Positions 43,992 to 62,224 of a stretch of DNA of 64,000 nt are shown in pieces. Made by a program: the position numbers and the translations under genes. How positions within the stretch are numbered: position 1 is the first letter of the stretch; the number at the start of each line of letters is the position of its first letter. Location of the stretch: the NCBI RefSeq assembly GCF_056746865.1, contig NZ_CM163382.1; one strand, given 5' to 3'. The notes below the pieces were generated by a model. The model saw nothing but the letters and a program-made list of their open reading frames with translations. It had not been told where the DNA came from and searched no databases.

Positions 43992-45029
43992 ATGTTTTCC
44001 GCATTGCGCCACCGTACCGCTGCCCTGGCGCTCGGCGTATGCTTTATTCTCCCCGTACACGCCTCGTCATCTAAACCTGGCGATTTTGCTAATACTCAGG
44101 CACGACATATTGCTACTTTCTTTCCGGGACGCATGACCGGAACTCCAGCAGAAATGTTATCTGCCGATTATATTCGCCAACAGTTTCAGCAAATGGGTTA
44201 TCGCAGTGATATTCGGACATTTAATAGTCGGTATATTTATACCGCCCGCGATAATCGCAAGAGCTGGCATAACGTGACGGGAAGTACGGTGATTGCCGCT
44301 CATGAAGGCAAAGCGCCGCAGCAGATCATCATTATGGCGCATCTGGATACTTACGCCCCGCTGAGCGATGCTGACGCCGATGCCAATCTCGGCGGGCTGA
44401 CGTTACAAGGAATGGATGATAACGCCGCAGGTTTAGGTGTCATGCTGGAATTGGCAGAACGCCTGAAAAATACGCCTACCGAGTATGGTATTCGATTTGT
44501 GGCGACCAGTGGTGAAGAGGAAGGGAAATTAGGTGCTGAGAATTTACTCAAGCGGATGAGTGACACCGAAAAGAAAAATACGCTGCTGGTGATTAATCTC
44601 GATAACTTAATTGTTGGCGATAAATTGTATTTCAACAGCGGCGTAAAAACCCCTGAAGCAGTAAGGAAATTAACGCGCGACAGGGCGCTGGCAATTGCGC
44701 GTAGTCATGGAATTGCCGCAACGACCAATCCGGGTTTGAATAAAAATTATCCGAAGGGTACTGGCTGTTGTAATGACGCCGAAGTTTTCGACAAAGCCGG
44801 TATTGCCGTACTTTCGGTAGAAGCAACAAATTGGAATCTTGGGAATAAGGATGGTTATCAGCAACGCGCAAAAACAGCTGCATTCCCTGCGGGAAATAGC
44901 TGGCATGACGTAAGACTGGATAATCAACAACATATTGATAAGGCACTTCCAGGAAGAATAGAACGTCGCTGCCGTGATGTTATGCGGATAATGCTACCGC
45001 TGGTGAAGGAGCTGGCGAAGGCGTCTTGA
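43992..45029 (+). CDS. iap: alkaline phosphatase isozyme conversion aminopeptidase
   Basis: 345 aa with signal peptide and M28-type peptidase features; classic neighbour of the E. coli CRISPR array. Confidence 0.9.
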   Translation: MFSALRHRTAALALGVCFILPVHASSSKPGDFANTQARHIATFFPGRMTGTPAEMLSADYIRQQFQQMGYRSDIRTFNSRYIYTARDNRKSWHNVTGSTVIAAHEGKAPQQIIIMAHLDTYAPLSDADADANLGGLTLQGMDDNAAGLGVMLELAERLKNTPTEYGIRFVATSGEEEGKLGAENLLKRMSDTEKKNTLLVINLDNLIVGDKLYFNSGVKTPEAVRKLTRDRALAIARSHGIAATTNPGLNKNYPKGTGCCNDAEVFDKAGIAVLSVEATNWNLGNKDGYQQRAKTAAFPAGNSWHDVRLDNQQHIDKALPGRIERRCRDVMRIMLPLVKELAKAS

Positions 45030-45049: not shown

Positions 45050-46176
45050 GGGAGTTCTACCGCAGGGGCGGGGAACTCCAAGTGATGTCCATCATCGCAT
45101 CCAGTGCGTCCGGTTTATCCCCGCTGACGCGGGGAACACACATGAATGTCGGTTCAGACCGTGTTTTTACCCGGTTTATCCCCGCTGGCGCGGGGAACAC
45201 TGCCTCGGCGGCGGCTCTGCGCAACCGCGAAACGGTTTATCCCCGCTGGCGCGGGGAACACGTTAAACCGTGATGATCAGCAAAAGCTATTTCCGGTTTA
45301 TCTCCGCTGACGCGGGGAACACGTCAATAGGCGGCGTCCCGTAGCCGTCCCCTTCGGTTTATCCCCGCTGGCGCGGGGAACACTTGAAATGGTCCAGCAC
45401 TGCGACCGTCGGCCCCGGTTTATCCCCGCTGGCGCGGGGAACACGCTGGTGGCGCGGGCAAACGGAACAATCCCGCCGGTTTATCCCCGCTGGCGCGGGG
45501 AACACGCTAACCTATAACACGGAAAATCACACGCTAACGGTTTATCCCCGCTGGCGCGGGGAACACGGCCATTCCCCCAAGCAGACGCAGGAAGTTAACG
45601 GTTTATCCCCGCTGGCGCGGGGAACACCTGGATTTCACCTCAGCAAATGCTGGATGTGGCGGTTTATCCCCGCTGGCGCGGGGAACACCACCCCTGATAT
45701 TTTTGCCACCGTGGTTACTCCGGTTTATCCCCGCTGGCGCGGGGAACACAGAAATCAAACTCAGCGTGCAAATGGGGTAGCCGGTTTATCCCCGCTGGCG
45801 CGGGGAACACTTGCGTTATTTCTATCTGGTGAGTCGCGGCACCGGTTTATCCCCGCTGGCGCGGGGAACACGTATTTTTTATCGTCGCATGAGTCGCGGT
45901 AACCGGTTTATCCCCGCTGGCGCGGGGAACACTTCTGCCGCGCCAGCAAACGTATCGGCGGTCACGGTTTATCCCCGCTGGCGCGGGGAACACCCCAGGC
46001 CAAGCATTATATCCTGTGCGTCGTTCGGTTTATCCCCGCTGGCGCGGGGAACACACCAAGAAGCTGACGAATCAGCCCGACACGCACGGTTTATCCCCGC
46101 TGGCGCGGGGAACACCCAGTTTCATATGAGCCGCCGCGCTGGATCATCGGTTTATCCCCGCTGGCGCGGGGAACAC
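45050..46176 (-). CRISPR. type I-E CRISPR array: 18 full 29-bp repeats plus one degenerate terminal repeat, 18 spacers of 32 bp
   Basis: repeat cggtttatccccgctggcgcggggaacac at exact 61-bp period starting 45111 through 46148; variants at 45111 and 45294; degenerate copy 45050-45078; leader on the cas2 side. Confidence 0.97.
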
Positions 46177-46272
46177 ACTAAGCATACATAACTGTTTTTA
46201 AACAAATTTATTCCGCATCAACAATCTACCAACTAAATTAAAACATTTCCTTATTTTTAAAGAACAGATAAC
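46177..46272 (-). promoter_or_regulatory. CRISPR leader
   Basis: AT-rich ~95 bp between last repeat and cas2 stop. Confidence 0.6.
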
Positions 46273-47482
<1,210 letters not shown>

Positions 47483-47486
<4 letters not shown>

Positions 47487-48133
47487 GCCTCTGCTCCGGG
47501 TTTGATCAGCATCAGACCACAGCCGAACGCGCGGCTTTTGCCATACCCCTGGCTCAGACGTTGCAGAAATAACCCGGGATCGGTGACCGTAAGCATCCCC
47601 GTATAATCCACGCTACTGAACTGGATCAGTTGCCGGGAGTTTTCCCGCCACAGTTGCTGTTGTCGGTAGGCATCAACCGAGGTATCCAGCAGTGTAAAAC
47701 CGCTTCTCTCCCCCTGCGCTGCCAGCCAGTCCAGCGCCGCCTGTTGTTGATGCAACCAGACATCACTTCCTTCCGCCTGCCCCCTCACCTGCCGTTTCGC
47801 CTCCATCAGCAGATCGTGGCGCTTGCCCGCTTTACAGATTGTTGGATTCGCCCGCAGGTTGAAACAAAGTTGTTGTCCGGTACGCAGCTCGGGCACAAAT
47901 GACCGGCATTCGATGGTGAACGTTTCACTTTCTGCCGGGCGTTCCTGCGACAGTACAAAAAAGCGAAACGCGCCCTGGAGTTCTTCCCGACGATAAAGAA
48001 ATTGCCTTTCTTTGCCGCCAGGGAAGAGATCCCACAGCCACTGATGCATCACATATTCCCCGCGATCCACCAGATGCAGCAACTGCGCAGGCGAAAGCTG
48101 GCCGGTATGTAAGGTTATTCTTGAGAGGTACAT
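47483..48133 (-). CDS. cas6e: Cas6e (CasE) crRNA endoribonuclease, divergent I-E variant
   Basis: 216 aa from MYLSRITLHTG with RBS GGAGGA; conserved MYLS N-terminus, FNLRANP and C-terminal GKSRAFGCGL. Confidence 0.8.
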
Positions 48134-48837
48134 GGTTCCTCCTTGCTGAGCCACGGCCCCTGATTGACGGTGCGTTCCCCAAACAACCATTGCTGACGAT
48201 TTAAAGGAACATCCCGGCGGCGCAATATTTTGCTCGCGACCAGGCCGTCGTGCTCCCCTTCCCACCAGCATTCATCCTGAAGTTTCGGGAGTGCGATTTT
48301 CAGGTCGTGGAAATGCTCCTGATACTGGTGATATGCGTTACGTAAAACATCAGACGCGTTGCCTTCAAGCAGTAACGGCGCAAGTGGTAATGCCAGCGGA
48401 TGACTTTTTCGCCCCAGATAAAGCGGAAAAACTGGATGGCGTAAACCGCCCTGCAACTGTTCGAGGCTGTAAGGCGCATCGGCTGTTGTTGCCACCGCCA
48501 CCATCCACCAGGCGTCGGTGTAGTAGTCGCGCCGGGAGATAATCGCGCTCAGAAGATCAGGGTCGCTCAACTCTTCGCGACGGCTGAAATAACGCGCTTT
48601 ACGCACCTCTTTTGGCATCTGGATTGTGTGATAATCCCGTGCCCAGCGCGGGTTACGGCTGGCGCAAACCACCAGTGAATAGTGGCGGTTAAACACGTTT
48701 AATCGTTCGGTATCATCACGCCGAATCCCTACCCCGGCAGCCAGCAGCCCCAGCAATGCTGAGCGCGAAGGCAGTTCATGGGTATGACGCACTTCGCCCG
48801 CTCCAAACAAACATTTCTCAACGTCTACTGAAGTCCA
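48115..48837 (-). pseudogene. cas5e: cas5e (casD) lacking its 5-prime end
   Basis: frame reads ...HELPSRSALLGLLAAGVGIRRDD (Cas5 glycine-rich motif) but hits a stop at 48838-48840 with no ATG; upstream is AT-rich island DNA. Confidence 0.65.
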
Positions 48838-48969
48838 TCAAATCCACGAATATCAAGCCTTTCAGCCATTTTCATAGCTTATTAACGTCTACTCACAACT
48901 ACCAGAATCTACACACAGAAGTGTATAGTAATGCGTATAGGACAAAATTTATTTTTTGGAGCTATACAC

Positions 48970-50184
48970 ATGCTGCTTTCAGACCTTGCTATCAGGCGCG
49001 CGAAGCCGAAAGAAAAGGCTTATACACTCAATGACGGTAACGGGCTTTCGTTACTCATTGAGCCGAACGGCTCGAAAGGGTGGCGACTACGTTACAGATT
49101 TGCAGGAAAGCCCAAAATGTTGTCGTTGGGCGTGTACCCTGATGTGTCTCTGTCTGATGCCAGAGCGGCAAGGGATGAGGCTAAAAGGCTTCTTGCTGGT
49201 GGTATAAATCCAAGTGAGGCCAGAAAAGCTCAAAAGCGAGAACAGGCGAGCAAATTTGGCAATACTTTTGAGGGTATCGCTCGCGAATGGTATGAAAAGC
49301 GGATCGACAGGTGGTCATCGTCATACGCCGAGGAAATGATCGAGACGTTTGAAAAAGACGTTTTTCCGTACATTGGCGGCAGGCCGATCGCAGAAATTAA
49401 GCCAATGGAGTTGCTTGCGGTTCTCTCCCGTCTTAATGACCGTGGGGCGACCGAAAAATTGCGTAAGGTTCGCCAGCGATGCGGCGAGGTGTTCCGGTAC
49501 GCAATCATCACCGGACGCGCTGAATATAACCCCGCACCAGATCTGGCAAGCGCATTTGCTCCACACAAAAAAGAGCATTATGCCTATTTGAAGGCCGACG
49601 AACTGCCGGAATTTTTCCGCGTTCTTAATACGTACACCGGAAGCCAGATCGTCAAGCTGGGTATGCGATTATTGATTCTGACAGGGCTCCGGCCAGGGGA
49701 ATTACGACAGGCAGAATGGCAGGAGATCGATTTTGATAATCGTTTGTGGGAAGTGCCTAAAGAACGAATGAAGATGCGCCGTCCTCATTGTGTGCCGCTT
49801 TCAGAACAGGCGATCGCTATTCTGGAACAGTTAAAACACATGACGGGGCAGTATCAGTTTATTTTCCCTGGTCGAATCCAGCACAGTAAGCCGATGAGTG
49901 AAATGGCGATGAACGTGCTTATTCGTCGTATTGGCTATTCTGGGCGCGTTACTGGTCATGGGTTCCGGCACACGATGAGCACGATTTTACATGAGCAGGG
50001 CTATAACACCGCGTGGATAGAAACGCAGCTTGCACACGTTGATAAGAACTCAATTCGTGGCACGTACAATCATGCGCAATATCTGGACGGGCGGCGCGAG
50101 ATGCTCCAGTGGTACGCCGACTATATGGACTCACTGGAACAGGGCGGCAACGTGGTGCATGGCAAGTTCGGAAAATGTGGATGA
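48970..50184 (+). CDS. int: tyrosine recombinase, P4/CP4-57-type integrase
   Basis: 404 aa from MLLSDLAIRRAK; N-terminal arm-binding-like domain; C-terminal catalytic GHGFRHT and RGTYNHAQY. Confidence 0.9.
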   Translation: MLLSDLAIRRAKPKEKAYTLNDGNGLSLLIEPNGSKGWRLRYRFAGKPKMLSLGVYPDVSLSDARAARDEAKRLLAGGINPSEARKAQKREQASKFGNTFEGIAREWYEKRIDRWSSSYAEEMIETFEKDVFPYIGGRPIAEIKPMELLAVLSRLNDRGATEKLRKVRQRCGEVFRYAIITGRAEYNPAPDLASAFAPHKKEHYAYLKADELPEFFRVLNTYTGSQIVKLGMRLLILTGLRPGELRQAEWQEIDFDNRLWEVPKERMKMRRPHCVPLSEQAIAILEQLKHMTGQYQFIFPGRIQHSKPMSEMAMNVLIRRIGYSGRVTGHGFRHTMSTILHEQGYNTAWIETQLAHVDKNSIRGTYNHAQYLDGRREMLQWYADYMDSLEQGGNVVHGKFGKCG

Positions 50185-50312
50185 CTGGTTGAGTATACAG
50201 TAGTAGACTTTGAGCGACGAAAGAAAAAGCTGTGTCTAGGGTCGCTCCCGAAAAACCGTATACCTCGACGGGCTGGCACAGCCACTACAGTAGAGGACGC
50301 TGAGGTGTGCGT

Positions 50313-51110
50313 ATGATTGATATTCATGCCGAATTAAACGAATACAAAAAAGATTTTATTTCTTTACGTGAATTTCTTGAGGTCGTGCTTAAGGTCGCTG
50401 GTGATGATTATGATGTTTCAGATCTCATAACTTGGATACTCAGGAGAATAAGCGGAGAACATATCCGCCTGTACACAGTAAATGAATTTAAGCTGTTGGA
50501 ATCTTTTTGTAACCCGTATCGGGATGAATTTGATTATGATGTTCTTTATAGAAATCTGGATGCGGTTCGGAAACATGGTTGTTTACCTGGTGAGAGGGAT
50601 GAAAATGGTTTTCTGGTGTCCGGTTATTGGGAAGATCCCGAATTTGAGAACATTGGATTTATAAGGGGTGAAATTTTCGCAATTTTTCCCGATGTCCTTG
50701 ACGCGTTAACGAAGCTGGAAGGCGCTAACTCTTCTGAAAATGACGAGGTACAAGGACGCGATATTGAAAAGAAAGAGTTGCGTACAGAGGATGATTTATT
50801 ATCCCAAATCGCAATGCTGGAAAGAGAAAACGCAGAGTTAAGGGCAAGGATAGAGCAGTTAGAGCAAGAGCGCCCGATACACTTATATAAATACTGGGAT
50901 AAAGACCCATTAGCTAAGGCTATTGAGATTAGAAACAGAGAGTGGGCCAATTACGATCCAGAAAATGATTTTGCCACCAGGGGAAATCAAGAAGCGATAA
51001 CTAGGGAGCTTAAGCAGTGGGGGGCAAGTAATGCTCTTGCAACGCTCATAGAGAGGACTGCCTGCCCTATTAACCGAGACAACAGCCAAAAGAACGCAAA
51101 GCCGGATTAA
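50313..51110 (+). CDS. hypothetical protein (island cargo, unknown function)
   Basis: 265 aa from MIDIHAELNEYKK with RBS gagg; acidic, central coiled-coil-like segment (AMLERENAELRARIEQLEQE); no recognisable motifs. Confidence 0.6.
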   Translation: MIDIHAELNEYKKDFISLREFLEVVLKVAGDDYDVSDLITWILRRISGEHIRLYTVNEFKLLESFCNPYRDEFDYDVLYRNLDAVRKHGCLPGERDENGFLVSGYWEDPEFENIGFIRGEIFAIFPDVLDALTKLEGANSSENDEVQGRDIEKKELRTEDDLLSQIAMLERENAELRARIEQLEQERPIHLYKYWDKDPLAKAIEIRNREWANYDPENDFATRGNQEAITRELKQWGASNALATLIERTACPINRDNSQKNAKPD

Positions 51111-51125
51111 CGCACCATACCGCAT

Positions 51126-51270
51126 ACCCTGAGGGTGATTTACTGTTACCCTGAGGGTATTTTTTTATCTTCCCCGTCAATTTTACCATCACCCTTAGGG
51201 TAGATTTCCTCCCGATTACCATCACCCTTAGGGTTAATTTCCTTCCGGTAACCATTAGGCCTGAGGGTAT
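51126..51270. repeat. five copies of palindrome CCCT(G/T)AGGG within ~33-bp tandem repeats
   Basis: ccctgaggg 51127-51135 and 51149-51157; cccttaggg 51192-51200 and 51225-51233; cctgaggg 51260-51267; 33-bp units at 51184 and 51217. Confidence 0.6.
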
Positions 51271-51337
51271 GAAAATATTCGTTATTTCTGTGCCATGATT
51301 ACCTCGTCAAATTGAGTAGACGTTATGAGGTAAATAG

Positions 51338-51535
51338 ATGTCAAATACGCTTATTCGTTTAACAGAAGTTCAGCGTAGAACTGGATATAGCAAGGCATGG
51401 ATTTATCGCCTTATGGGGCAAGGTAAATTTCCTGCATCAGTTAAAATTGGCTCGCGAGCGATTGCTTTCGTTGAAAGTGAAATTGACGAATGGATCAATC
51501 AGCGTATTGCCGAATCACGCGGAACGGCTGCCTGA
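51338..51535 (+). CDS. alpA: AlpA/Vis-family HTH regulator (excisionase-like)
   Basis: 65 aa MSNTLIRLTEVQRRTGYSKAWIYRLMGQGKFPASVKIGSRAIAFVESEIDEWI; classic AlpA pattern. Confidence 0.8.
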   Translation: MSNTLIRLTEVQRRTGYSKAWIYRLMGQGKFPASVKIGSRAIAFVESEIDEWINQRIAESRGTAA

Positions 51536-51610
51536 TTAAATAGCTACGGGTTATTGCCCAAGCTATCCACTAGCAAATAAAAAGTAACTTAATTCGATAG
51601 CGGAGTTTTT

Positions 51611-52435
51611 ATGAAACTGCGAAAAACGCCCGTACAGGGGCAGGGCTTTGTTCGGCCTGAAAACCAGAATCTGCAAAATTTCGGCGAAATTATCCCGGTT
51701 ATTTCCGGCGTTATTGGCGGGCGTGAAGCCGCTGTTGTTAGCGCAAAAGCGTTACACAAAGCGTTGGGCGTGGGAAAAGACTTCTCTACATGGATCACTG
51801 ATCGTATCTCTGAATATGACTTCACCATTGGGTACGATTACTCAGTCCATAAAACAATTTCCCCAAATTTGGGGAAAAGCCCGAATGGCGAGGCTTACAG
51901 CAAGATTAAGCACTCTGGCAGACCCGGTAAAGACTATCTGTTAAGTGTCGGAATGGCGAAAGAACTGGCAATGATCGAACGCACCGAACAGGGCCGCGCC
52001 GTTCGTCAGTACTTCATCAAATGCGAGGAGGAGCTACACAAGGTAGCGCCTGTACGTTCCGCAGCGTTACGCCGGGAACTGAAAGCCCGTATCACCGTAG
52101 CCAGCTACTTTAAGCCAATGTGTGCCGCGCTGGAGGCGTACCGGGCTGAACTGGGTAAAAACACGCTCCAGCACCACTACACCACGGAAGCCAATATGCT
52201 GGCGCGTATCGTGCTGGGTGGCATGAATGCAAAACAGTGGGCGCAGGCGAACGGCATCACAGGCGAACCACGCGACCACATGAGCACGCTGCAGCTTGAG
52301 CACCTTTCTTACCTTGAGCAGAGCAATATCACGCTGATTGAGTTAGGCCAGGACTACCACCAGCGGAAAGCTGAATTAATTCGTCTTTCGCAACGCTGGT
52401 TAGCCCGCCGCATGGAGGTGAGCAGCCATGCGTAA
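51611..52435 (+). CDS. phage antirepressor-like protein (AntA/Rha-type)
   Basis: 274 aa; motif DFSTWITDRISEYDF...DYLLSVGMAKELAMI...RQYFI resembles antirepressor N-terminal domains. Confidence 0.55.
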   Translation: MKLRKTPVQGQGFVRPENQNLQNFGEIIPVISGVIGGREAAVVSAKALHKALGVGKDFSTWITDRISEYDFTIGYDYSVHKTISPNLGKSPNGEAYSKIKHSGRPGKDYLLSVGMAKELAMIERTEQGRAVRQYFIKCEEELHKVAPVRSAALRRELKARITVASYFKPMCAALEAYRAELGKNTLQHHYTTEANMLARIVLGGMNAKQWAQANGITGEPRDHMSTLQLEHLSYLEQSNITLIELGQDYHQRKAELIRLSQRWLARRMEVSSHA

Positions 52436-52985
52436 ACCTGTCTTTTATGCCGGTCGCACTGAAATCTCTGTCATTAAATTCGATGACATTCAGGTGCGCA
52501 TAGTGAGTATCAACGGCGAGCCGTGGTTTGTTGGCGCTGATGTGTGTGCCGCGCTGGAAATCAGCAATGTTACTGATGCCGTTTCAGTTCTGGATAACGA
52601 TGAGGTAATGACCCTAGCTTTAACCGAGGGTCATTCCGGTAAGCGTGGTGGTGCCAGAAGCTGGAATGTTGTCTCTGAATCAGGTTTCTACAAACTGATC
52701 GCCCGCAGCCGTAAAGCTTCCACACCAGGCACATTTGCGCACCGTTTCAGTAACTGGGTATTCCGCGAGGTGATTCCTTCAATCCGCAAAACGGGGGGTT
52801 ATGGTGTTCCGTTTGCCATGCTGAATGATTTCAGTAAACGTCAGGCTGCATATCAACAGGAAGCCAGCAAACGCGGTTACAGGTTACAGCAATGCAAAGA
52901 GGCAAAAGATGCACTGGAACGAGAAGAGCGGGCGCTATGGCGTAAATATCAGCCTGATTTTCTGGAGGGTGAAAGCAATGTGTAA
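52428..52985 (+). CDS. Bro-N domain protein (antirepressor family)
   Basis: 185 aa; VIKFDDIQVRIVSINGEPWFVGADVCAALEISNVTDAVSVLDNDE matches Bro-N signature; overlaps upstream gene. Confidence 0.7.
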   Translation: MRKPVFYAGRTEISVIKFDDIQVRIVSINGEPWFVGADVCAALEISNVTDAVSVLDNDEVMTLALTEGHSGKRGGARSWNVVSESGFYKLIARSRKASTPGTFAHRFSNWVFREVIPSIRKTGGYGVPFAMLNDFSKRQAAYQQEASKRGYRLQQCKEAKDALEREERALWRKYQPDFLEGESNV

Positions 52986-53153
52986 CGATCCGAACGTTAC
53001 AGAAAGAAAAAGCGCCCCGTTGCTGGATAACAGGCAAAACAAAGGCGACCGGGATAGGTCGCCAGTGGGAACAAAGGAAATCAAACGCATCGCCAACAAT
53101 GCCAGATTTGCGGCTGGTGGGCAATGTGATCAGTGTGCTGGCTTGCTGGTGGG

Positions 53154-53351
53154 CTATTCCTGCTCTTTAGCATCGCCATACTGCGATGTTTTCCAGGTAT
53201 GCGATTCCATTTTTGTGCGCCTGTACTCTTTTAAGAACTTCTCAAGGACAAACGCACATGGCGCAAATCTTTCCTGTTCTTGTTCGCTTACCGCATTTTT
53301 GCGTTGTTTTTTCCTGGATGAGGATAATTTCTTTAATGATTTGTCAGTCAT
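53154..53351 (-). CDS. small basic protein, paralog of the adjacent 65-aa ORF
   Basis: 65 aa; shares C-terminal ...AFVLEKF...AKEQE pattern with neighbour; weak RBS. Confidence 0.4.
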   Translation of the reverse strand: MTDKSLKKLSSSRKKQRKNAVSEQEQERFAPCAFVLEKFLKEYRRTKMESHTWKTSQYGDAKEQE

Positions 53352-53408
53352 CGTAGATACCTGTAACCCTGTGCGCCACAGTTCACCGCACCACGGCGCT
53401 GGTGATGG

Positions 53409-53606
53409 TTACTCCTGCTCTTTGGCCTTCCGGCGCTGTTCATATTTTAATTTGCGTCCACAGGCATCTAAGACCCATGCGGAAAAATTAGCACTAGGAT
53501 TAGTTAATTTTTCTTGTTCAACACTGGCATCAATCCCATCTATAAGCTCGTGCGGGAATCGAATATTTTTCTTTGCTGATTTGTTGTTTGTGTTTCCGCT
53601 AGACAT
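53409..53606 (-). CDS. small ribbon-helix-helix-like DNA-binding protein
   Basis: 65 aa; RBS gaggtg; KKNIRFPHELIDGIDASV resembles Arc/CopG beta-strand plus helix. Confidence 0.5.
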   Translation of the reverse strand: MSSGNTNNKSAKKNIRFPHELIDGIDASVEQEKLTNPSANFSAWVLDACGRKLKYEQRRKAKEQE

Positions 53607-53635
53607 TGGTACACCTCACTTAAATGGATTTGATG

Positions 53636-53711
53636 GGCGCACACAATACAGCAAAAAAAGTGAGAAGTTAAGTATTGACATGTGCGCACACATGATTTTA
53701 ATCTGTGCGCA
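53636..53711. promoter_or_regulatory. divergent promoter/operator region with three GTGCGCA(C) palindromes
   Basis: ggcgcac 53636-53642, gtgcgcac 53682-53689, gtgcgca 53705-53711; TTGACA 53675-53680 with TTTAAT 53697-53702. Confidence 0.45.
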
Positions 53712-53810
53712 AGTTTGGGTTGCATTGCTCAAATTAAGCAACGCCCCGCAGTGCTCGCAACACATGCAGGGCGTCTAACCACCAACGATAGAAAGCGTAT
53801 CGAGGTAGCT

Positions 53811-54014
53811 ATGTTAAATCATACCACACACCCGCAAGGGCGGGACTCGCACAACCTGAATAAATACATCTGGCGTTTTATCGCCCTGAGCACCGCACAA
53901 CCACGCGTAATACACATCGAGGCCGCCAGCGAACAGGAAGCCCGTCAGCAATCCCCGGCTGGCTGCGTGATGGTATTTACTGCCCGCATCCGTCAGGGGG
54001 AATACTATGCGTGA
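53811..54014 (+). CDS. small hypothetical protein (possibly Icd-like)
   Basis: 67 aa from MLNHTTHPQG with RBS gagg; YIWRFIALSTAQPRVIHIEAASEQEARQQ; assignment by weak recall. Confidence 0.4.
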   Translation: MLNHTTHPQGRDSHNLNKYIWRFIALSTAQPRVIHIEAASEQEARQQSPAGCVMVFTARIRQGEYYA

Positions 54015-54264
54015 TGAACGATTTATTCTTCTGGAGCAAAAATTCAGTGAAGCGCCAAAAAATGAAATTGATGCTCTTTTGCATATCGCGAATATGCTAA
54101 AAGTAGCAACGTTCCTTATAGTTTCGAATCTGGAGCATGAAACGGCGTTAGATATACTGAACAGTGCTGTCGATTATTCTGAATATATTGCCGAGGATAA
54201 ATACAGGCAATTACCAGATTTGTTAGCCCATAAATATAAAGAAGAACCTCACACCGGGAAATAA
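54007..54264 (+). CDS. hypothetical protein
   Basis: 85-aa ORF overlapping neighbours on both sides (translational coupling). Confidence 0.5.
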   Translation: MRDERFILLEQKFSEAPKNEIDALLHIANMLKVATFLIVSNLEHETALDILNSAVDYSEYIAEDKYRQLPDLLAHKYKEEPHTGK

Positions 54265-54266
54265 AC

Positions 54267-54569
54267 ATGAAGAAGATTAAATTTACTGGCTTAAATGCCA
54301 GCGGACAGACTCACCCGAAAATCAGGATCGGGGATATTTTCCGGGATAAATATGGTGACAGCGTGGTTATTAATTCCGTGTATGAACGGCACATTACATA
54401 CCGCCGCGCAGGGTACGACTATGACTGTGTGATGCCCGTTCATCAGTTCCGGCGTGATTTTTCACTGGTATGTGCAGCACCACGCAGTAAGCCCACCAGT
54501 AAAGAGAAAGCACGGGCAAATATTCAGGTAATAAAGAACATGATTAACGCATTCAGGGGCAAGAAATGA
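54267..54569 (+). CDS. hypothetical protein
   Basis: 100-aa ORF; stop overlaps start of the 708-aa gene. Confidence 0.5.
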   Translation: MKKIKFTGLNASGQTHPKIRIGDIFRDKYGDSVVINSVYERHITYRRAGYDYDCVMPVHQFRRDFSLVCAAPRSKPTSKEKARANIQVIKNMINAFRGKK

Positions 54570-56692
54570 AACGCGCACCGAATTTAAAGCACCAGCCGAA
54601 AGACAAAATGACGGAGGTGATTATCTTTGCGGGTAGTGATGCCTGGGCACATGCGAAAGAGTGGAGCGAATGGGCCGGAAAGCATATTGCGGCAGATGAT
54701 ACACATCCAGTTATTCTTGGACCGGAACAACTGGCGAGTCTGGCAGACACGCAAATCATCGACAAAGGGCGCTATTACGTGCGCGTTTATCGTGCTGGTG
54801 AAATATCAGAGCAGCACCTTACACAGATAGCGACACTGCTTGCAGTGGCGGGTGTGAAGGAGGCGCGTTGCTACCGCAGCTTTGTTGATCAGCAGCCGGA
54901 GGACTGGACACCGCGCATGGCTGGACTGAAGGATGATGCGGAACGCGGTAACAGTCTGGTGATCAACCTTCCGGCGAAGACAAATTTCACCGGAAATTAT
55001 GATGACGAATTAAAGCCTCGTGTTGAAAGTCGCGTCGATGGTGTTTTCTGGGTAACGCCCAAAGTGGACAAGCAGTCAGGCGAAATTATCCGGCCTGAGA
55101 CGTGGTTATGTTCTCCGCTTGAACTACTGGGAACAGGAACAATCGGCAAAGAGCATTACCGCGTGATGCGCTGGAAAAAACCAGCAAACCATGAGGTCAT
55201 TACAATGGCGGTCCCGTGCGGAGGCATTGGTGACCGTGACGGCTGGCGGTTGCTGAAAGACCACGGCCTTAACGTGACGACCAACGGCAAATACAGGGCT
55301 ATCTTGGCTGACTGGATGCAGTTAAGCGGAAACCATGAGGAATGGCAGTTAAGCACAACAACGGGGTGGCATTTTGGTGCGTACATCATGCCGGATGGTT
55401 CGATCATCGGTGAATCAGAGAAACCCATCCTGTTTACCGGAAAAACTGCCGCTGTTAATGGCTATTCCGTGGCGGGAACAGCGGAGGGCTGGCGCGATAC
55501 CGTGGCACGGCTGGCTGGTGGTAATCCGTCCATGATGCTGGGTGTGGCGGTATCGCTATCTGCACCATTAATCGGGCTGGTGGGTGCTGACGGCTTCGGG
55601 GTTCATCTTTTTGAGCAATCATCAGCAGGTAAAACCACCACACAGAACATTGCATCAAGTTTATGGGGAGAGCCGGACGCGCAACGGCTGACCTGGTACG
55701 GAACGGCGTTAGGTATCGCCAACGAGGCCGAAGCACATAATGACGGGCTGTTACCCCTGGATGAAATAGGCCAGGCCGGAAACGCACGGGAGGTGTCCAC
55801 GTCAGCCTATACGCTGTTTAACGGTTCCGGGAAATTACAGGGGGCGAAGGACGGCGGCAACAGGGAGATAAAACACTGGCGTACGGTGGCAATCAGCACC
55901 GGAGAAATGGACGTTGAAACATTCCTCAAAACGGAAGGGATAAAAATTAAAGCGGGACAGCTTGTCCGTCTGCTTAACGTACCGATGGAAAAGGCCTCGC
56001 AGTTTCACGAATACAGCACCGGAAAGGCGCACGCAGACGCGTTAAAAGATGCCTGGACAGAAAATCACGGGGCGGCAGGTCGTGAGTGGGTTAAATGGCT
56101 GGCAGGCCACCAGCAGGAGGCAAAGGACGCGGTAAGGGCATGTCGCGAGCGGTGGCGCAACCTGATACCGGAGAGCTACGGCGAGCAGGTTCACCGTGTG
56201 GGGGAAAGATTCGCCGTACTGGAGGCCGCGCTTGTGCTTTCCGGTCATGTTACAGGCTGGGATGTTCAGGCGTGCCGTGATGCAGTTCAGCATAACTTTA
56301 ATGCCTGGGTGAAGGAATTCGGCACGGGCAACAGGGAATTTAAACAGATGGTTGAACAGGCTGAGGCGTTTTTGTCGTCGTTCGGGTTCAGTCGATACCT
56401 TCCCTATCCAAACAGCGACGAGCGTGATTTACCGATTAAAGACCTTGCCGGATACAGAAAGGGGAGTATCAGAAACGAAGATGACGAGTTCCGTTTTTAC
56501 ACGTTCCCGCATGTGTTTGAGGGTGAGATAGCACAGGGATTTAATCCGTCTCACTTTGCCCGCGCGTTGAGTGCAGCCGGAATGCTGGAAGCGGGAGGCG
56601 ACCGCCGTTACAAGAAAAAGGCGCTCGGCAGGATTGGCGGGAAGCAACATATTTTTTACGTGCTGATGTTCCAGCCTGAAGCAGAAGATTAA
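54566..56692 (+). CDS. putative replication initiator (primase/helicase-like P-loop protein)
   Basis: 708 aa; Walker-A-like FEQSSAGKTT; directly upstream of iteron cluster and SSB gene. Confidence 0.65.
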   Translation: MKRAPNLKHQPKDKMTEVIIFAGSDAWAHAKEWSEWAGKHIAADDTHPVILGPEQLASLADTQIIDKGRYYVRVYRAGEISEQHLTQIATLLAVAGVKEARCYRSFVDQQPEDWTPRMAGLKDDAERGNSLVINLPAKTNFTGNYDDELKPRVESRVDGVFWVTPKVDKQSGEIIRPETWLCSPLELLGTGTIGKEHYRVMRWKKPANHEVITMAVPCGGIGDRDGWRLLKDHGLNVTTNGKYRAILADWMQLSGNHEEWQLSTTTGWHFGAYIMPDGSIIGESEKPILFTGKTAAVNGYSVAGTAEGWRDTVARLAGGNPSMMLGVAVSLSAPLIGLVGADGFGVHLFEQSSAGKTTTQNIASSLWGEPDAQRLTWYGTALGIANEAEAHNDGLLPLDEIGQAGNAREVSTSAYTLFNGSGKLQGAKDGGNREIKHWRTVAISTGEMDVETFLKTEGIKIKAGQLVRLLNVPMEKASQFHEYSTGKAHADALKDAWTENHGAAGREWVKWLAGHQQEAKDAVRACRERWRNLIPESYGEQVHRVGERFAVLEAALVLSGHVTGWDVQACRDAVQHNFNAWVKEFGTGNREFKQMVEQAEAFLSSFGFSRYLPYPNSDERDLPIKDLAGYRKGSIRNEDDEFRFYTFPHVFEGEIAQGFNPSHFARALSAAGMLEAGGDRRYKKKALGRIGGKQHIFYVLMFQPEAED

Positions 56693-56715
56693 CTTCCCTG
56701 TGTGAGGTAAAAAGT

Positions 56716-56840
56716 TGCGGGTTATGCGGGTTATCCTGTGCATAAGTTAATTAACTGAATGATTAAAAAGGAAATTAATAACCCGCACGTAACCCGCAAA
56801 ACGGCAGTTATAACCCGCAAATGTGCGATTGTAACCCGCA
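56716..56840. repeat. iteron cluster TAACCCGCA (putative island origin of replication)
   Basis: direct copies at 56779, 56790, 56811, 56832 (spacing 11/21/21 bp) plus inverted tandem gcgggttat at 56717-56734. Confidence 0.65.
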
Positions 56841-56902
56841 AAATTTCACTGTAAGAGTGTAAACAAGCGTAACTATCACGTTAAAACCGGAGAACAAACA
56901 GC

Positions 56903-57328
56903 ATGACGGCGCAAATATCAGCTTACGGGCGGCTGGTGGCTGACCCGCAGTTAAAGACCACCAGCAAGGGCACACAAATGGCGATGGCGAGTATGGCGGT
57001 CCCCCTTCCATGCAATCAGACAGATGACGGAACGGCGACGATGTGGTTATCCGTCCTGGCGTTTGGCAGACAGGCTGACGCACTGGCAAAACACCACAAA
57101 GGCGAACTGGTGAGCGTGGCCGGTAACATGCAGGTGAGCTGGTGGACGGGCCAGAACGGCGAAACGAGGCAGGGATGGCAGGTTATCGCAGACAGCGTAA
57201 TCAGTGCGCGAACGGCGCGACCGGGCGGCAAAAAAGGCCAGCAGGGGCAGGCTACTGATGCACTGAACAGGGCAAAGCAACAGACAGGCCAGCACGATGA
57301 TCCGTACGGGGACGGGATACCGTTTTAA
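56903..57328 (+). CDS. ssb: single-stranded DNA-binding protein (SSB-like)
   Basis: 141 aa; OB-fold-like N-terminus, Gly/Gln-rich linker, C-terminal acidic tail DDPYGDGIPF. Confidence 0.7.
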   Translation: MTAQISAYGRLVADPQLKTTSKGTQMAMASMAVPLPCNQTDDGTATMWLSVLAFGRQADALAKHHKGELVSVAGNMQVSWWTGQNGETRQGWQVIADSVISARTARPGGKKGQQGQATDALNRAKQQTGQHDDPYGDGIPF

Positions 57329-57411
57329 TTCACAACAGCGAACAGAGTAATTACCCAGTGCGCCGTAAAGCCCCGTCCTTCAGGTCGGGGATATAAGGCG
57401 CGGTTTTCCAC

Positions 57412-57828
57412 CTAACTAGGTGTTTGCTGTTGTTCAATGTATTGGCGGATGATGGATATTGGCGCACCTCCGCAGCTACTGGCAAAATAGCTGGGACTCC
57501 ATAAAACGCCTTTGTAGTAATACCTGACTGCAATATCTGGTCGATCTCGTCGCAATAATCTACTCGATACGCCCTTGAGACTGTTCACCAGGGTGGATAT
57601 CGCCAATTTGGGAGGATAGTTAATTAGCAGGTGAACGTGATCTCGTTCTCCATCCATTTCAACCAGTTCAGCTTCAAAATCAGCACATACACTTGAAAAG
57701 TAAGTGCGTAGTTTTTCTATTGCGTCATGGTCAAAAATCTGGCGTCGGTACTTGGTAACAAAGACCAGGTGAACGTGCATCAGGAAGACACAGTGCCTTC
57801 CACGTCGGATATCGGTTTCTTTTTTCAT
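57412..57828 (-). CDS. tnpA: IS200/IS605 Y1 (HUH) transposase TnpA
   Basis: 138 aa from MKKETDIRRG; HUH motif HVHLL and catalytic Tyr region VLWSPSYFASSCGG. Confidence 0.85.
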   Translation of the reverse strand: MKKETDIRRGRHCVFLMHVHLVFVTKYRRQIFDHDAIEKLRTYFSSVCADFEAELVEMDGERDHVHLLINYPPKLAISTLVNSLKGVSSRLLRRDRPDIAVRYYYKGVLWSPSYFASSCGGAPISIIRQYIEQQQTPS

Positions 57829-57850
57829 AGGCCAAAGTATAATTTGGCAT

Positions 57851-59059
57851 ATGAAACGACTACAAGCTTTCAAATTCCAGTTAAGACCAAATGGAAAACA
57901 GGAGCGTGAAATGAGGCGCTTCGCGGGCGCATGTCGTTTCGTTTTCAATCGTGCTCTGGCGCTTCAGAATGAGAATCATGAGGCCGGGAACAAATATATT
58001 TCTTATGCAAAGATGACTTCCTGGCTGGTTGAATGGAAAAATGCTACTGAAACGCAATGGCTTAAAGATTCTCCCTCACAGCCATTGCAGCAGTCACTGA
58101 AAGACCTTGAGCGAGCCTACAAAAATTTCTTTCAGAAGCGTGCCGCTTTTCCCCGATTCAAAAAGCGGGGACAGCATGATGCATTCCGCTATCCGCAGGG
58201 TGTTAAGCTCGATCAGGAAAACAGCCGTATTTTTCTGCCGAAACTGGGCTGGATGCGCTACCGGAACAGCCGTCAGGTCACGGGTGTTGTGAAAAATGTC
58301 ACTGTCAGCCAGTCCTGCGGTAAGTGGTACATCAGTATTCAGACAGAAAGTGAAGTATCAACTCCGGTTCACCCTTCAGCATTAATGGTCGGGCTGGATG
58401 CTGGCGTGGCTAAACTCGCCACGCTGTCAGATGGCACGGTCTTTGAGCCTGTAAACAGTTTTCATAAAAACCAGAAGAAGCTGGCGAGACTTCAGCGCCA
58501 GTTAAGCCGCAAGGTTAAATTCAGCAACAACTGGCAGAAGCAGAAACGCAAAATACAGCGACTGCATTCCCGTATCGCAAATATCCGCAGGGACTACCTT
58601 CACAAAGTCACAACGACCATCAGCAAAAACCACGCAATGATAGTCATTGAGGATTTGAAGGTCAGCAACATGTCAAAGTCAGCCTCGGGTACGGTCAGCC
58701 AGCCGGGGCGCAATGTCCGGGCAAAATCAGGTTTAAACCGTTCGATACTGGATCAGGGCTGGTATGAAATGCGCCGTCAGCTTGAGTACAAGCAGCTCTG
58801 GTGTGGCGGTCAGGTGCTTGCTGTTCCGCCAGCGTACACAAGCCAGCGTTGCGCGTGCTGTGGTCATACAGCGAAAGAAAATCGCCTGTCACAAAGTCAA
58901 TTCAGATGCCAGGTATGTGGATATACAGCGAACGCCGATGTAAACGGCGCTCGTAACATTTTAGCGGCGGGGCACGCCGTTCTTGCCTGTGGAGGGATGG
59001 TGCAGTCAGGCCGCCCGTTGAAGCAGGAACCCACCGAAATGATTCAGGCGACAGCCTGA
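57851..59059 (+). CDS. tnpB: TnpB (OrfB) RuvC-like RNA-guided nuclease
   Basis: 402 aa; N-terminus [17 protein letters not shown]; RuvC region [15 protein letters not shown]; zinc finger [12 protein letters not shown]...CQVCG; [10 protein letters not shown]. Confidence 0.85.
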
Positions 59060-59118
59060 ACGTAGCAGGAATCCACGTCCTTCAGGGCGTGGAGGATGTC
59101 AAATATCAATGCGACGAC
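58900..59118 (+). ncRNA. predicted TnpB omega-RNA (tnpB 3-prime end, right-end hairpin, flanking guide)
   Basis: inferred from IS200/IS605 architecture only; right-end hairpin 59073-59092; guide would be about 16 nt from 59103. Confidence 0.3.
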
Positions 59119-59258
59119 TGGAATGTTCCAGGAAGGCACAGAGGCCACCGAAGCAACCGGATAATTTAGAAGACCTGAAACGGTCGCTTAAACGCACTGA
59201 AAAAGAAATGGGGATAGATGGGATCGGGAAATCAGTATGGCGTAACTACCAGAAGTAA
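59109..59258 (+). CDS. possible small basic protein (49 aa)
   Basis: ATG at 59109 just right of the inferred IS end; MRRLECSRKAQRPPKQPDNLEDLKR...; followed by strong terminator; no clear RBS. Confidence 0.25.
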   Translation: MRRLECSRKAQRPPKQPDNLEDLKRSLKRTEKEMGIDGIGKSVWRNYQK

Positions 59259-59264
59259 GCACAG

Positions 59265-59289
59265 AGCCGGAGCAATCCGGCTTTTTTTT
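59265..59289 (+). terminator. rho-independent terminator
   Basis: agccgga-gcaa-tccggct stem followed by T8. Confidence 0.7.
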
Positions 59290-59389
59290 GGCTGAAATCA
59301 ATCAATCTGTTTTTGTGATAGAAATATATTTATCTACCACTTTTTTCGATCAATAATGTGCATAATTTAGTCATTAAGAGGAAATTGCT

Positions 59390-59596
59390 GTGAATTGTAT
59401 TAACGACCTGAACACAGGCGATGTCAGAGGTGGTTCCGTTCATCTGGATGCACAGACCGTGATGCGCCTTAAGCAGTACAGAATCGACCATGTGAACAAT
59501 CACCCTGATCAGCCATTACCAGGCGTGGCGCAGATTGTCAGACATGCCGTAAACGCCTGGCTTAATCAGAATGGTTTTGCATCGGGGGGTGAGTAA
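59390..59596 (+). CDS. small hypothetical protein, first gene of cargo operon
   Basis: 68 aa; GTG start with RBS aagagg 8 nt upstream; AT-rich promoter-like region upstream. Confidence 0.45.
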   Translation: MNCINDLNTGDVRGGSVHLDAQTVMRLKQYRIDHVNNHPDQPLPGVAQIVRHAVNAWLNQNGFASGGE

Positions 59597-59692
59597 TGAA
59601 TCGCTGGTACAGCATCAAAGCAGAGGGACGCCAATGTTATCTAACTCAGGTTTTATGAATTCTGACTCCCGATTCAAAATAGGAGGTTACTA

Positions 59693-62224
59693 ATGCCAGT
59701 CGTACCAACAGTATCCGGACGTCAGGTTGAGAGCCGTGGAGTTCAGTCAGCAGGCTTGCAGACGTTTTCTCAGCCAGGTATTGGTGATGCTTTTGTTCGG
59801 GCAGGGGCAGAGGCAATTGATGTTTTTGGTCAGGCAAAACAGCGTGCCAATATTGCCTTGATTCAGGAGGCATCCCTTAAACTCAGTCAGATAGGCAGTG
59901 ATCTGCTGAATAATCCTGAAACAGGATTGCTTAACCTGAAAGGGAAAAATGCTATTGGAAAAGGCCATGAGTATACACAGCAGTTTGATGCTCAGATCGA
60001 ACAACTGGCTATGTCGCTGCCGGATGAACAGGCTCGTAATGCTTTCATGCAGCAGGCGCAGCAGCAGCGTATTCAGTTCGCTACGCAGGCCGGGAGGTAC
60101 GAGATAGGGCAAATAAATGCCTACGAAGAAGGCCAGTTTCAGGCGACACTGCTGAATAATGGTAAAAATGCCTCAGCATTATATGGCGACAACGCAGCAT
60201 ACATATTGGCTAATACGCAAACTTTCCAGCAAATTGAGGATTACGGTATTGCGCATGGCTGGAGCGACGAGCAAATCCAGGCCAAGAAAATCGAGTTTAA
60301 AGAAGCAACAGCAAAAGCAACTGCTCAAAATGCTATTGGAGCAAACTATCTTCAGGTAAGACAGCAAAATGGCGAGTTAAGCGATACTGCTGCTGGATCT
60401 CGCCGTGCTGTAGCAGATAGTGGCTCTTCCGATCGTACCCGCGGTATACGCAACAATAACCCCGGCAATCTTGAATACAGCAAAACTAATCCGTGGATTG
60501 GGCAGACTGGTGATGATGGTCGCTTTGCCAAATTCGAAACCCCTGAACACGGTATTCGCGCGCTTGGTCGCAATTTGCTGTCGTATCAGCGTCAGGGTTA
60601 TGACACCATCAGCGAAATAATTAATCGCTGGGCACCGGCCAGTGATGATAATAAAACTGATGCTTATATACGGGCAGTATGTGCTCAGCTCGGTGTAACT
60701 CCTGACCAGCCGCTTGACGCATCAAATCCTGACACACTGAAATCTCTGTGCAAAGCAATTATTCATCATGAGCAAGGCAGTCAGCCGTACAGTGATCAGC
60801 AATTGGCCGCTGGCGTTAGTGCCGCACTGGGGCTTTCTCAGCTACCGACAAAAAATAAACGTTATACCGGTGTAGCCTGGTTCGATGCTTTAAGTGAATC
60901 AGATCAGGCCAGCGTGTTGCGACAGACGGATGCATTAGCCAGACAGCAGCAGGCTGAATATAGAACGATGCTCGAAAGCCGGGTTCGCGATGCAACGGCT
61001 GCGTATATGCGTGGCGTTGAATTTCCTAACCCGCCTGGTGAGGGTGAGTTCATTGCTGCTTATGGTGTCAGAGAAGGAAACCTGCGATATACCGAGTTCA
61101 GAAATTTGCAGATCGCCGGACAGTATATAGGCTCTTTCCGCAACATGCCGACAAGCAGCATTACCGCATATGTTGAGCAATTACGCCCGGATACTGGTGA
61201 GACAGGGGAGGGGTATGCGTCTCGTGCGGAGTTATTCGACCGGGTATCGGCGGCAGCCACGAAGGTAATAACCCAGAGGCAGAATAATCCGTTTAGTGCA
61301 GCGGTGGAAATCGGAGCCTATAAGCCGATCACCAGCAACAACCCTGACGACATCACTGCCGAGGTGGCTAACCGTTTCTCGTCGCAGGAAAGCTTACGCG
61401 CGTTGGGAATTAATGCCCCACTCCTCAACAGTGAAGAGGCGGCTGCGCTGGCACAGCAGGTGCGCGGCACTCAGAACGTTGACCAGACAATTAAACTGTT
61501 GCAGAGCATGGGGGAGAAGCTGCCTGCGCCAGCAATACGGCAGGTGGCATCTGTAATTGCTCCGAACAGTGCGGCAACAGCCTATTCTGCGCTGCTGCTG
61601 GGCACGCCGGATAACCAGTACGACAACACCAGGCCGACGATCCCATATAGTCAGTTCATCGGGTATAAGCCGACGATGAACAAGTACGACGTTGCAAAGG
61701 TTATTCTTTCCGGCGACCAACTACTGAATCCGACGAAGGCCATGAAGAATGCGGGCATAACTCCGGTACAGTTGCCGAGCGAAGATAAGATGAAAGACGC
61801 TTTCGACGAACAGGTAGGTAATGCATTTGCCCGTAACCCGCAGTTACGCCAGATCAGTTATAGCCTTTTCAAAGCCGCTTACGCAGGAATAGCTTATCAA
61901 TCTGGTGATGCCTCTACGGTAAGAACCAGTATGCCTGATACAGACATTGTAGCTGATGCCGTGAAGTATGCTACTGGCGGTATATACAATGGTTTTAATG
62001 GCGGCGACGTTGTAATGCCTTTTGGCATGGATAAATCTACTTTCAAAGATCGCTATACCACATCTGCGAAACAAGCACTGAAAGATGCCGGACTTAACGT
62101 AAATGCAGTGTCAAATTTCACGCCAGTTAATATCGGCAATAACCGGTATCGGCTTGTAAATGGTAGCGGACGCTGGGCAACAGATCCCAGAACCAATAAA
62201 GCTATTGTCGTGAGGGTTGAATAA
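59693..62224 (+). CDS. large hypothetical protein (843 aa), Q/A-rich
   Basis: strong RBS aggagg; conserved-looking central block IRNNNPGNLEYSKTNPWIGQ...FAKFETPEHGIRALGRNLLSYQRQGYDTISEIINRWAP; no P-loop; function unknown. Confidence 0.7.
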   Translation: MPVVPTVSGRQVESRGVQSAGLQTFSQPGIGDAFVRAGAEAIDVFGQAKQRANIALIQEASLKLSQIGSDLLNNPETGLLNLKGKNAIGKGHEYTQQFDAQIEQLAMSLPDEQARNAFMQQAQQQRIQFATQAGRYEIGQINAYEEGQFQATLLNNGKNASALYGDNAAYILANTQTFQQIEDYGIAHGWSDEQIQAKKIEFKEATAKATAQNAIGANYLQVRQQNGELSDTAAGSRRAVADSGSSDRTRGIRNNNPGNLEYSKTNPWIGQTGDDGRFAKFETPEHGIRALGRNLLSYQRQGYDTISEIINRWAPASDDNKTDAYIRAVCAQLGVTPDQPLDASNPDTLKSLCKAIIHHEQGSQPYSDQQLAAGVSAALGLSQLPTKNKRYTGVAWFDALSESDQASVLRQTDALARQQQAEYRTMLESRVRDATAAYMRGVEFPNPPGEGEFIAAYGVREGNLRYTEFRNLQIAGQYIGSFRNMPTSSITAYVEQLRPDTGETGEGYASRAELFDRVSAAATKVITQRQNNPFSAAVEIGAYKPITSNNPDDITAEVANRFSSQESLRALGINAPLLNSEEAAALAQQVRGTQNVDQTIKLLQSMGEKLPAPAIRQVASVIAPNSAATAYSALLLGTPDNQYDNTRPTIPYSQFIGYKPTMNKYDVAKVILSGDQLLNPTKAMKNAGITPVQLPSEDKMKDAFDEQVGNAFARNPQLRQISYSLFKAAYAGIAYQSGDASTVRTSMPDTDIVADAVKYATGGIYNGFNGGDVVMPFGMDKSTFKDRYTTSAKQALKDAGLNVNAVSNFTPVNIGNNRYRLVNGSGRWATDPRTNKAIVVRVE

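Follow-up and report, generated by a model that had tools for sequence, protein, structure and literature searches.

A chromosomal type I-E CRISPR2.1 array of an Escherichia coli lineage including ST69, beside a cas1e pseudogene and an island-interrupted cas5e

The sequence analyzed here is a 64,000-nt stretch, referred to as the window, of contig NZ_CM163382.1 in NCBI RefSeq assembly GCF_056746865.1. A CRISPR array lies between iap (43992-45029) and cas2e, and is followed by cas1e, cas6e and the 3' part of cas5e, at which a prophage-like island begins (Table 1). Repeat finding and direct parsing located 19 copies of a 29-nt repeat at 45050-46176, with starts at 45050, 45111 and so on to 46148 and a start-to-start spacing of exactly 61 nt throughout. 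The parse yielded 18 spacers of 32 nt, all distinct; the closest pair, spacers 13 and 14, has only short blocks in common. The consensus repeat CGGTTTATCCCCGCTGGCGCGGGGAACAC, read on the minus strand as transcribed GTGTTCCCCGCGCCAGCGGGGATAAACCG, is matched exactly by 16 of the 19 copies. Two others carry point variants (G17A at 45111; C10T plus G17A at 45294), and the terminal copy is degenerate. Sixteen exact and two near-exact copies of a 29-mer, all of them in register, rule out chance, and no further copy was found in the window even at up to 8 mismatches.

Table 1. Features of the array, the adjacent cas genes and the island (window coordinates).
Feature	Position	Strand	Remarks
Degenerate terminal (oldest) repeat	45050..45078	-	19/29 matches to consensus; conserved anchor by iap; nearly the same sequence follows the K-12 iap stop
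Spacer 1, ancestral anchor	45079..45110	-	30/32 to oldest K-12 CRISPR I spacer; 3 mismatches in ETEC1747
18 repeats (29 nt, type A, ...GGAACAC on + strand) with spacers 2-18	45111..46176	-	Annotated 'CRISPR' at equivalent NZ_CP102488.1 coordinates
Spacer 2	45140..45171	-	32/32 in P7, P1, SJ46 and many ~90-110-kb plasmids (upf94.2 / 'DNA-binding protein'); flank CAG, non-canonical
Spacer 4	45262..45293	-	30/32, capsid scaffold gene of P2-family prophage in NZ_CP145694.1; flank CAT
Repeat 5, C10T+G17A	45294..45322	-	C-G stem pair lost, stability lowered
Spacer 5	45323..45354	-	30/32, portal gene of the same NZ_CP145694.1 P2-family prophage as spacer 4; flank CAT
Spacer 7	45445..45476	-	32/32 in P1-like phage vB_EcoM-813R1; 31/32 in P1 darB; flank CAT
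Spacer 10	45628..45659	-	32/32, portal / head-tail connector gene of Cyrano, CMS-2020a and pLF82; PAM CAT
Spacer 12	45750..45781	-	32/32, baseplate assembly protein J gene of vB_EcoM-569R10 and relatives and of chromosomal P2-like prophages; PAM CAT
Spacer 18, newest, leader-proximal	46116..46147	-	
Leader, A+T-rich	46177..46272	-	Between newest repeat and cas2e stop codon; 74% identity to K-12 CRISPR I leader region
cas2e, intact, 97 aa	46273..46566	-	WP_000063172.1 in identical DNA
cas1e pseudogene	46563..47486	-	TAA at codon 200 (46887-46889), Tyr in K-12
cas6e, intact, 216 aa	47483..48133	-	Open frame; annotated in identical DNA
cas5e 3' part	48115..48798	-	Start codon and 21 codons (63 nt) at the 5' end absent; aligns to positions 21-228 of 230 in the Cas5e model TIGR01868
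Probable 7-bp crossover core CTTCGCC	48792..48798		Occurs in cas5e and in the island att site at the 3' end of tRNA-Gly (three-way comparison)
Prophage-like integrative island	48799..64000	+	Continues past window end; collinear with NZ_CP066839.1 tRNA-Gly island
P4-type tyrosine integrase, first island gene	48931-50184		
int-alpA RNA motif	50229-50296		Rfam
AlpA-like excisionase/regulator	51338-51535		
Primase	54566-56692		
IS200/IS605 insertion with tnpA and tnpB, inside island	57412-59059		

A preliminary description of this DNA had reported 18 spacers of 32 bp between 29-bp repeats at a perfect 61-bp period, the same point variants, a terminal repeat matching at about 19/29 and the leader-proximal spacer sequence, all of which our parse reproduced. 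Two details needed adjustment. Its range, 45050-46272, covers the array and also the 96-nt leader (46177-46272), the array proper stopping at 46176. The variant repeats, which it described as the two leader-distal ones, are real, but they are the second and fifth from the old end, with consensus repeats at 45172 and 45233 between them. RefSeq CRISPR annotation in identical genomes covers 45111-46176 only. An Rfam search of 40-60 kb at the gathering threshold returned the int-alpA RNA alone and no CRISPR-repeat family, a result that is uninformative for the array.

RNA folding of the consensus repeat predicts a 7-bp stem closed by a GCCA tetraloop (-15.2 kcal/mol, z = -3.2). The plus-strand change G17A corresponds to C13U in the hairpin loop and leaves the fold unchanged. 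C10T corresponds to G20A in the stem, where it breaks a C-G pair and raises the folding energy from -15.2 to -8.3 kcal/mol. The second repeat of the K-12 array, at the same array position as 45111, has a related variant (G17A plus C18T), which makes the 45111 change a long-standing polymorphism close to the anchor end rather than recent decay. The suggestion that the repeat variants mark the old end of the array is thus too simple, as G17A is neutral for folding and has a K-12 counterpart, and C10T alone weakens the stem.

At least 30 complete E. coli chromosomes, some from strains named ST69, carry a 100% identical copy of the 3.5-kb region around the array, annotated there as iap, CRISPR, cas2e, cas1e and cas6e. 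Over positions 24000-48798 the window differs from the ST69 chromosome NZ_CP102488.1 by 3 substitutions. Its position between iap and cas2 and its identity to annotated chromosomes identify the array as the chromosomal type I-E CRISPR2.1 array (CRISPR I, iap-cas2) of an E. coli lineage to which ST69 belongs. The arrays of those genomes, NZ_CP102488.1 among them, agree with it in locus, in the lengths of repeat (29 nt) and spacers (32 nt), in the leader and in the CWT motif, and the sequence from the array through cas6e, including the cas1e stop, is 100% identical. What sets the studied strain apart from the genomes sharing its array is the island-interrupted cas5e, present in this strain alone.

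The array belongs to the second known type I-E variant of E. coli, with type A repeat, leader-A and cas-EO genes. Its repeat ends in ...AACAC and that of K-12 in ...AACTC. Cas1 and Cas2 are ~84% identical to their K-12 counterparts, and Cas6e and Cas5e only ~30%. The protospacer motif of leader-A/cas-EO systems is CWT, mostly CAT, whereas it is CTT in K-12 (Diez-Villasenor et al., 2013; PMC3737337). The A-type repeat, the non-K-12 cas genes and the presence of CAT at five of the six protospacers identified below all fit the cas-EO variant. Compared with K-12 CRISPR I (cas-EK), the locus is alike in position, degenerate terminal repeat, oldest spacer, leader and Cas1/Cas2. It differs in repeat end, spacer content (K-12 has 12 different spacers), PAM (CTT only in K-12) and Cas6e/Cas5e, and K-12 has intact cas1 and cas5 genes.

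The array is oriented on the minus strand, with the leader at 46272-46177, the newest spacer at 46147-46116 and the oldest at 45110-45079. This polarity follows from four independent observations: from the 74% identity of the leader to that of K-12, from the degenerate terminal repeat that K-12 also has beside iap, from the 30/32 match of the oldest spacer to the oldest one in K-12, and from protospacer motifs lying on the side predicted by that orientation. The identity and polarity first proposed for this CRISPR were thus borne out by the iap-cas2e position, RefSeq annotation, K-12 homology and motif side, and the proposed comparison of spacer order with other E. coli arrays ended in 100% identity with at least 30 complete genomes, strains named ST69 among them. 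By homology with K-12, the array may be transcribed from the leader. A simple scan of array and leader detected no consensus sigma-70 promoter in the leader, and terminator-like matches were at chance level.

The 18 spacers were concatenated with runs of N between them and searched against 50,697 phage records (E up to 10) and 72,556 plasmid records; 13 of them (spacers 3-18 except 7, 10 and 12) were also searched against 5,426 complete E. coli genomes. Targets in phages or phage-plasmids could be assigned to one third of the spacers (2, 4, 5, 7, 10 and 12; 6/18). The phage search matched spacers 2, 7, 10 and 12 only. Spacers 2, 7 and 10 alone match ~700 plasmid records, and spacer 10 is found at 32/32 in dozens of ~100-115-kb plasmids labeled 'non-mobilizable'. 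The protospacers of spacers 4 and 5 in the NZ_CP145694.1 prophage are 2.3 kb apart on one strand. The protospacer flank is CAT in five of six cases and CAG in one, far from chance. Two surveys of E. coli from animals (PMC8868466, PMC9732669) had already listed targets for spacers 2, 4, 7 and 10; the former includes spacer 2, and the latter gives spacer 4 as 'phage capsid scaffolding protein'. The spacer targets, initially considered unknown, are therefore known for six spacers, four of which were already in literature tables. The phage and plasmid search advised at that stage has now covered all 18 spacers and pointed to P1/P7-like, pLF82/Cyrano-type and P2-family elements. As to self-targeting, also raised then, no spacer matches elsewhere within the 64-kb window at up to 9 mismatches.

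For the other 12 of 18 spacers, no target was found in the phage, plasmid or E. coli genome collections searched. Against plasmids, the 14 spacers other than those with phage matches returned mislabeled array-bearing chromosomes, one chance match and one match to spacer 1. The latter is a 32/32 match in unannotated sequence of a 293-kb E. coli plasmid (NZ_LC542972.1), and is the sole non-chance match outside recognizable arrays among the 12. In the 13-spacer search of E. coli genomes, 60 rows sampled from 353 matching records placed the matches under CRISPR annotation, in unannotated sequence or in a 'hypothetical protein', the one exception being the P2-family prophage that spacers 4 and 5 match. 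Spacers 13, 14 and 18 had no exact 24-nt match in IMG/VR viral contigs. Two weak matches were rejected as chance: spacer 4 to Anabaena/Nostoc phages (27/30, E = 0.9) and spacer 6 to the P2-family prophage of NZ_CP145694.1 (23/32).

The cas genes were described at the outset as a crippled locus, and this proved correct twice over, cas1e having an internal TAA and cas5e being truncated at 48798 by a foreign island. In the Cas1-Cas2 module, cas2e is intact and cas1e is stopped. The TAA precedes the active-site residues H208, D218 and D221, so that only E141 remains, and four genomes sharing the array have this 'internal stop' in their annotation. Because this nonsense mutation removes three of the four active-site residues, spacer acquisition was probably lost in the lineage and the array frozen, unless the TAA is read through in translation or an intact second cas1 lies outside the 64-kb window. 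About 105 of the 5,426 complete genomes have at least 80% of the 13 spacers queried. Those array-sharing relatives that were compared differ internally only, and spacer 18 is adjacent to the leader in all of them. One relative, NZ_CP159170.1, has 21 spacers, as spacer 5 occurs twice and two additional units stand between 7 and 8, but its newest spacer is the same; in two other relatives the array ends at spacer 18, followed by one repeat. Internal loss and duplication with no gain at the leader end is as predicted for a dead adaptation module.

Collinearity with the ST69 chromosome ends at 48798, inside cas5e and 63 nt before its start. The last seven collinear nucleotides, CTTCGCC, are preceded in cas5e by GACGCA and followed by GGGGGC, and belong equally to the 3' end of tRNA-Gly, CTTCGCCCGCTCCA. 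From 48792 onward the window is collinear with an island of NZ_CP066839.1, at 99.4-99.8% identity in three blocks. In that genome and about a dozen others the island lies in its normal place, right after tRNA-Gly (glyU, beside actS). Besides the genes listed in Table 1, it encodes Ant and BRO proteins, SSB and, up to the window end, virion proteins. With these virion-protein genes of its own, and with integrase, AlpA and primase as its only P4 hallmarks, the idea that the island is a P4-like, P2-dependent satellite, which would have linked it to the anti-P2 spacers, was dropped. The hallmarks of integration seen in the window are an integrase beside the junction, the same boundary as at tRNA-Gly and a short core identity; the core at both ends is seen only in the porcine strain discussed below. 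The genes cas7e, casB, casA and cas3 are absent from the 64-kb window and probably lie beyond the island. The single operon required for Cascade and Cas3 is thus not found in the window, cas5e being truncated and the other four genes lying outside.

A junction-specific search of the 5,426 complete genomes found the cas5e insertion junction in exactly one, the porcine strain ETEC1747 (NZ_CP122722.1). The two junction strings of the insertion read GACGCACTTCGCCCGCTCCAAACAAAC and TTCCCTTCGCCGGGGGCATCGACG. In ETEC1747 a decayed, ~10.1-kb relative of the island interrupts cas5e and is bounded at either end by CTTCGCC; beyond it come the cas5e 5' fragment, cas7e, casB, casA and a frameshifted cas3. 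The two strains have in common the exact insertion point, the core, the island family and the island orientation. In contrast to the studied strain, ETEC1747 has a decayed integrase, an intact cas1 and the cas3 frameshift. It also represents another lineage, with flanks 96% identical and an unrelated array sharing the anchor spacer alone. In the ST69 reference NZ_CP102488.1, which has the same array as the window, cas5e is intact. Since the ETEC1747 lineage and array differ, cas5e is intact in an array-sharing genome and no other complete genome has the junction, the two insertions most plausibly arose independently at a single secondary attachment site.

With ETEC1747 as a guide, the junction in the window is most likely the left end of a simple insertion made by the integrase, whose right end would be joined through CTTCGCC to the cas5e 5' end, GGGGGCATCGACG. 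The same left junction would be expected if the break in cas5e were instead one end of a large inversion, in which an island resident at glyU, ~130 kb away, recombined through its attL with the look-alike in cas5e and inverted cas7e to cas3 together with cysH. tRNA-Gly and cas5e are ~135 kb apart in the ST69 reference, the island right end falls beyond 64000, and an island at glyU would have the orientation opposite to that seen in the window, which an inversion would turn into the observed one. However, the ST69 reference has no island at glyU, and ETEC1747 provides a plain insertion at this exact site and orientation, with the 7-bp core on both sides. In addition, recombination of attL with a pseudo-attB is less usual for tyrosine integrases than that of attP with a pseudo-attB. 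We therefore regard an inversion as unlikely and retain the simple insertion.

Whatever the form of the rearrangement, one may ask whether the array still serves as a working immune memory that has lost adaptation alone, with Cascade assembled from the displaced cas genes and some source of Cas5e. The intact cas6e and cas2e, and the several spacers that perfectly match circulating phage-plasmids with a proper PAM, would be in line with this. Yet the cas5e fragment, deprived of its start and first 21 codons, faces the integrase region of the island instead of the operon promoter. Cascade cannot do without Cas5e, the subunit that holds the 5' handle of the crRNA, and under laboratory conditions H-NS silences the type I-E operons of E. 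coli. A working memory is consequently very improbable, and interference appears to be abolished in the studied strain, a prediction made from gene content that presupposes no intact second cas5 outside the 64-kb window. An assembly chimera hiding a cas operon as continuous as in other ST69 genomes is likewise very improbable: the junction is indeed found in ETEC1747 only among the 5,426 complete E. coli genomes and in no genome sharing the array, but it coincides precisely with the 7 bp that cas5e and the att core have in common, at an island boundary known from tRNA-Gly, assemblers do not join contigs on 7 bp, and ETEC1747 as an independent complete genome has the same junction together with the matching second one.

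It is thus reasonable to regard the locus as the cas-EO CRISPR2.1 array of the ST69 lineage, frozen by the cas1e stop and deprived of interference by the island in cas5e; we would give this account as a whole a probability of about 90%. In the history that it implies, Cas1-Cas2 would once have added spacers at the leader end from CAT-flanked DNA (5'-ATG-3' on the crRNA-sense strand), the identifiable donors being P1-like phages, phage-plasmids of the pLF82/Cyrano type and P2-family temperate phages. The nonsense mutation in cas1e would then have ended acquisition and left the array as a frozen record. An island with a P4-type integrase would have entered cas5e by recombining at a 7-bp site that mimics its tRNA-Gly core, thereby separating the array and cas6e-cas1-cas2 from the cas5e 5' end, cas7e-casB-casA-cas3 and the operon promoter. 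Transcription of the array from its leader would still be possible, as would cleavage by Cas6e if cas6e is expressed. The resulting crRNAs would be left without an effector, because no Cascade forms without Cas5e.

The array itself is already known, being identical to annotated public arrays and containing several published spacers. It is the one that this widespread extraintestinal pathogenic lineage normally carries, and is of use mainly as a typing marker. The locus illustrates a stepwise decay of type I-E systems, in which adaptation would have been lost lineage-wide through the cas1 nonsense codon and interference subsequently in one strain through the split cas5e, with the array unchanged through both losses. 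The identified spacers aim at P1-like and pLF82/Cyrano-type phage-plasmids and at P2-family phages, the very elements that move resistance and virulence genes from one E. coli strain to another.

The sole point that may be mildly new is that disruption of cas5e, probably by an integrase, has recurred at a single secondary attachment site. Our literature search for integrase-mediated insertion into cas5 found only cas inactivation mediated by insertion sequences, as in the cas genes inactivated by IS transposition in PMC10359306. Those cases are similar in that a mobile element lies within a cas gene and loss of interference is predicted. They differ from the present one, where a prophage-like island exceeding 15 kb would have been placed by a tyrosine integrase acting at a mimic of the tRNA-Gly core, not by a transposase. 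It is a tentative and rather doubtful proposal that cas5e of the cas-EO variant is a recurrent secondary site for islands targeting the 3' end of tRNA-Gly (glyU), and so a repeated, site-specific route to loss of interference in E. coli lineages, which might be favored for disarming immune memory against temperate elements. If so, the same 7 bp of cas5e having been hit twice would add site-specific integration to the routes by which cas genes are inactivated.

The 7-bp sequence CTTCGCC (window 48792-48798), found in cas5e of the cas-EO system, a non-K-12 type I-E variant in E. coli, resembles the tRNA-Gly att core. It is at exactly this point of cas5e that related integrase islands are inserted in the window strain and in ETEC1747 (NZ_CP122722.1), which represent two unrelated E. 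coli lineages. Both island junctions are seen in ETEC1747, at 20093 and 30203 of its locus extract L014. In that strain cas3 is also frameshifted (L014 33543-36241) and cas1 is intact, and compared to the lineage carrying the array of the window the order of cas decay is reversed.

The inserted element in the window is a prophage-like island, usually located at glyU, that occupies 48799-64000 and continues past the window end. In comparison with the glyU copy in NZ_CP066839.1, it is divergent at segment 53135-53743. An IS200/IS605-family element lies within the island at 57355-59102, whereas the glyU copy carries ProQ/FinO-family and other small genes at this place.

Features of the island inserted in cas5e (window coordinates)
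Feature	Position	Strand	Part of
P4-type integrase			Island
int-alpA RNA motif	50229-50296		Island
AlpA-like gene	51338-51535		Island
Ant/BRO			Island
Primase	54566-56692		Island
SSB	56903-57328		Island
tnpA	about 57412-57810	minus	IS200/IS605-family element
TnpB, RNA-guided nuclease	57851-59059	plus	IS200/IS605-family element
Virion/transglycosylase protein, 843 aa	59693-62224		Island

Among the spacers of the array, numbered from the oldest (iap side), the adjacent spacers 13 and 14 (45811-45903) have the blocks TTATC and TGAGTCGCGG in common, shifted by 1-2 bases, as if one sequence, in two related versions, had been the source of both. These common blocks are the reason why Tandem Repeats Finder flagged the region. 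Searches of phages, plasmids, E. coli genomes and IMG/VR found no target for either spacer. Adjacent spacers 4 and 5 (45262-45354) both match a single P2-family prophage, which in NZ_CP145694.1 is flanked by mipA and yeaE. The two matches are on the same strand, 2.3 kb apart, each with a CAT flank, a pattern expected from primed adaptation or from a single infection episode. Spacer 2 (45140-45171) perfectly matches P1/P7-type elements, and its protospacer is flanked by CAG instead of CAT or CTT, with AAG occurring 3 nt beyond this flank on the crRNA-sense strand. The CAG flank could mean that the spacer was acquired off-register, or that a PAM escape has become fixed in P1/P7-type phages.
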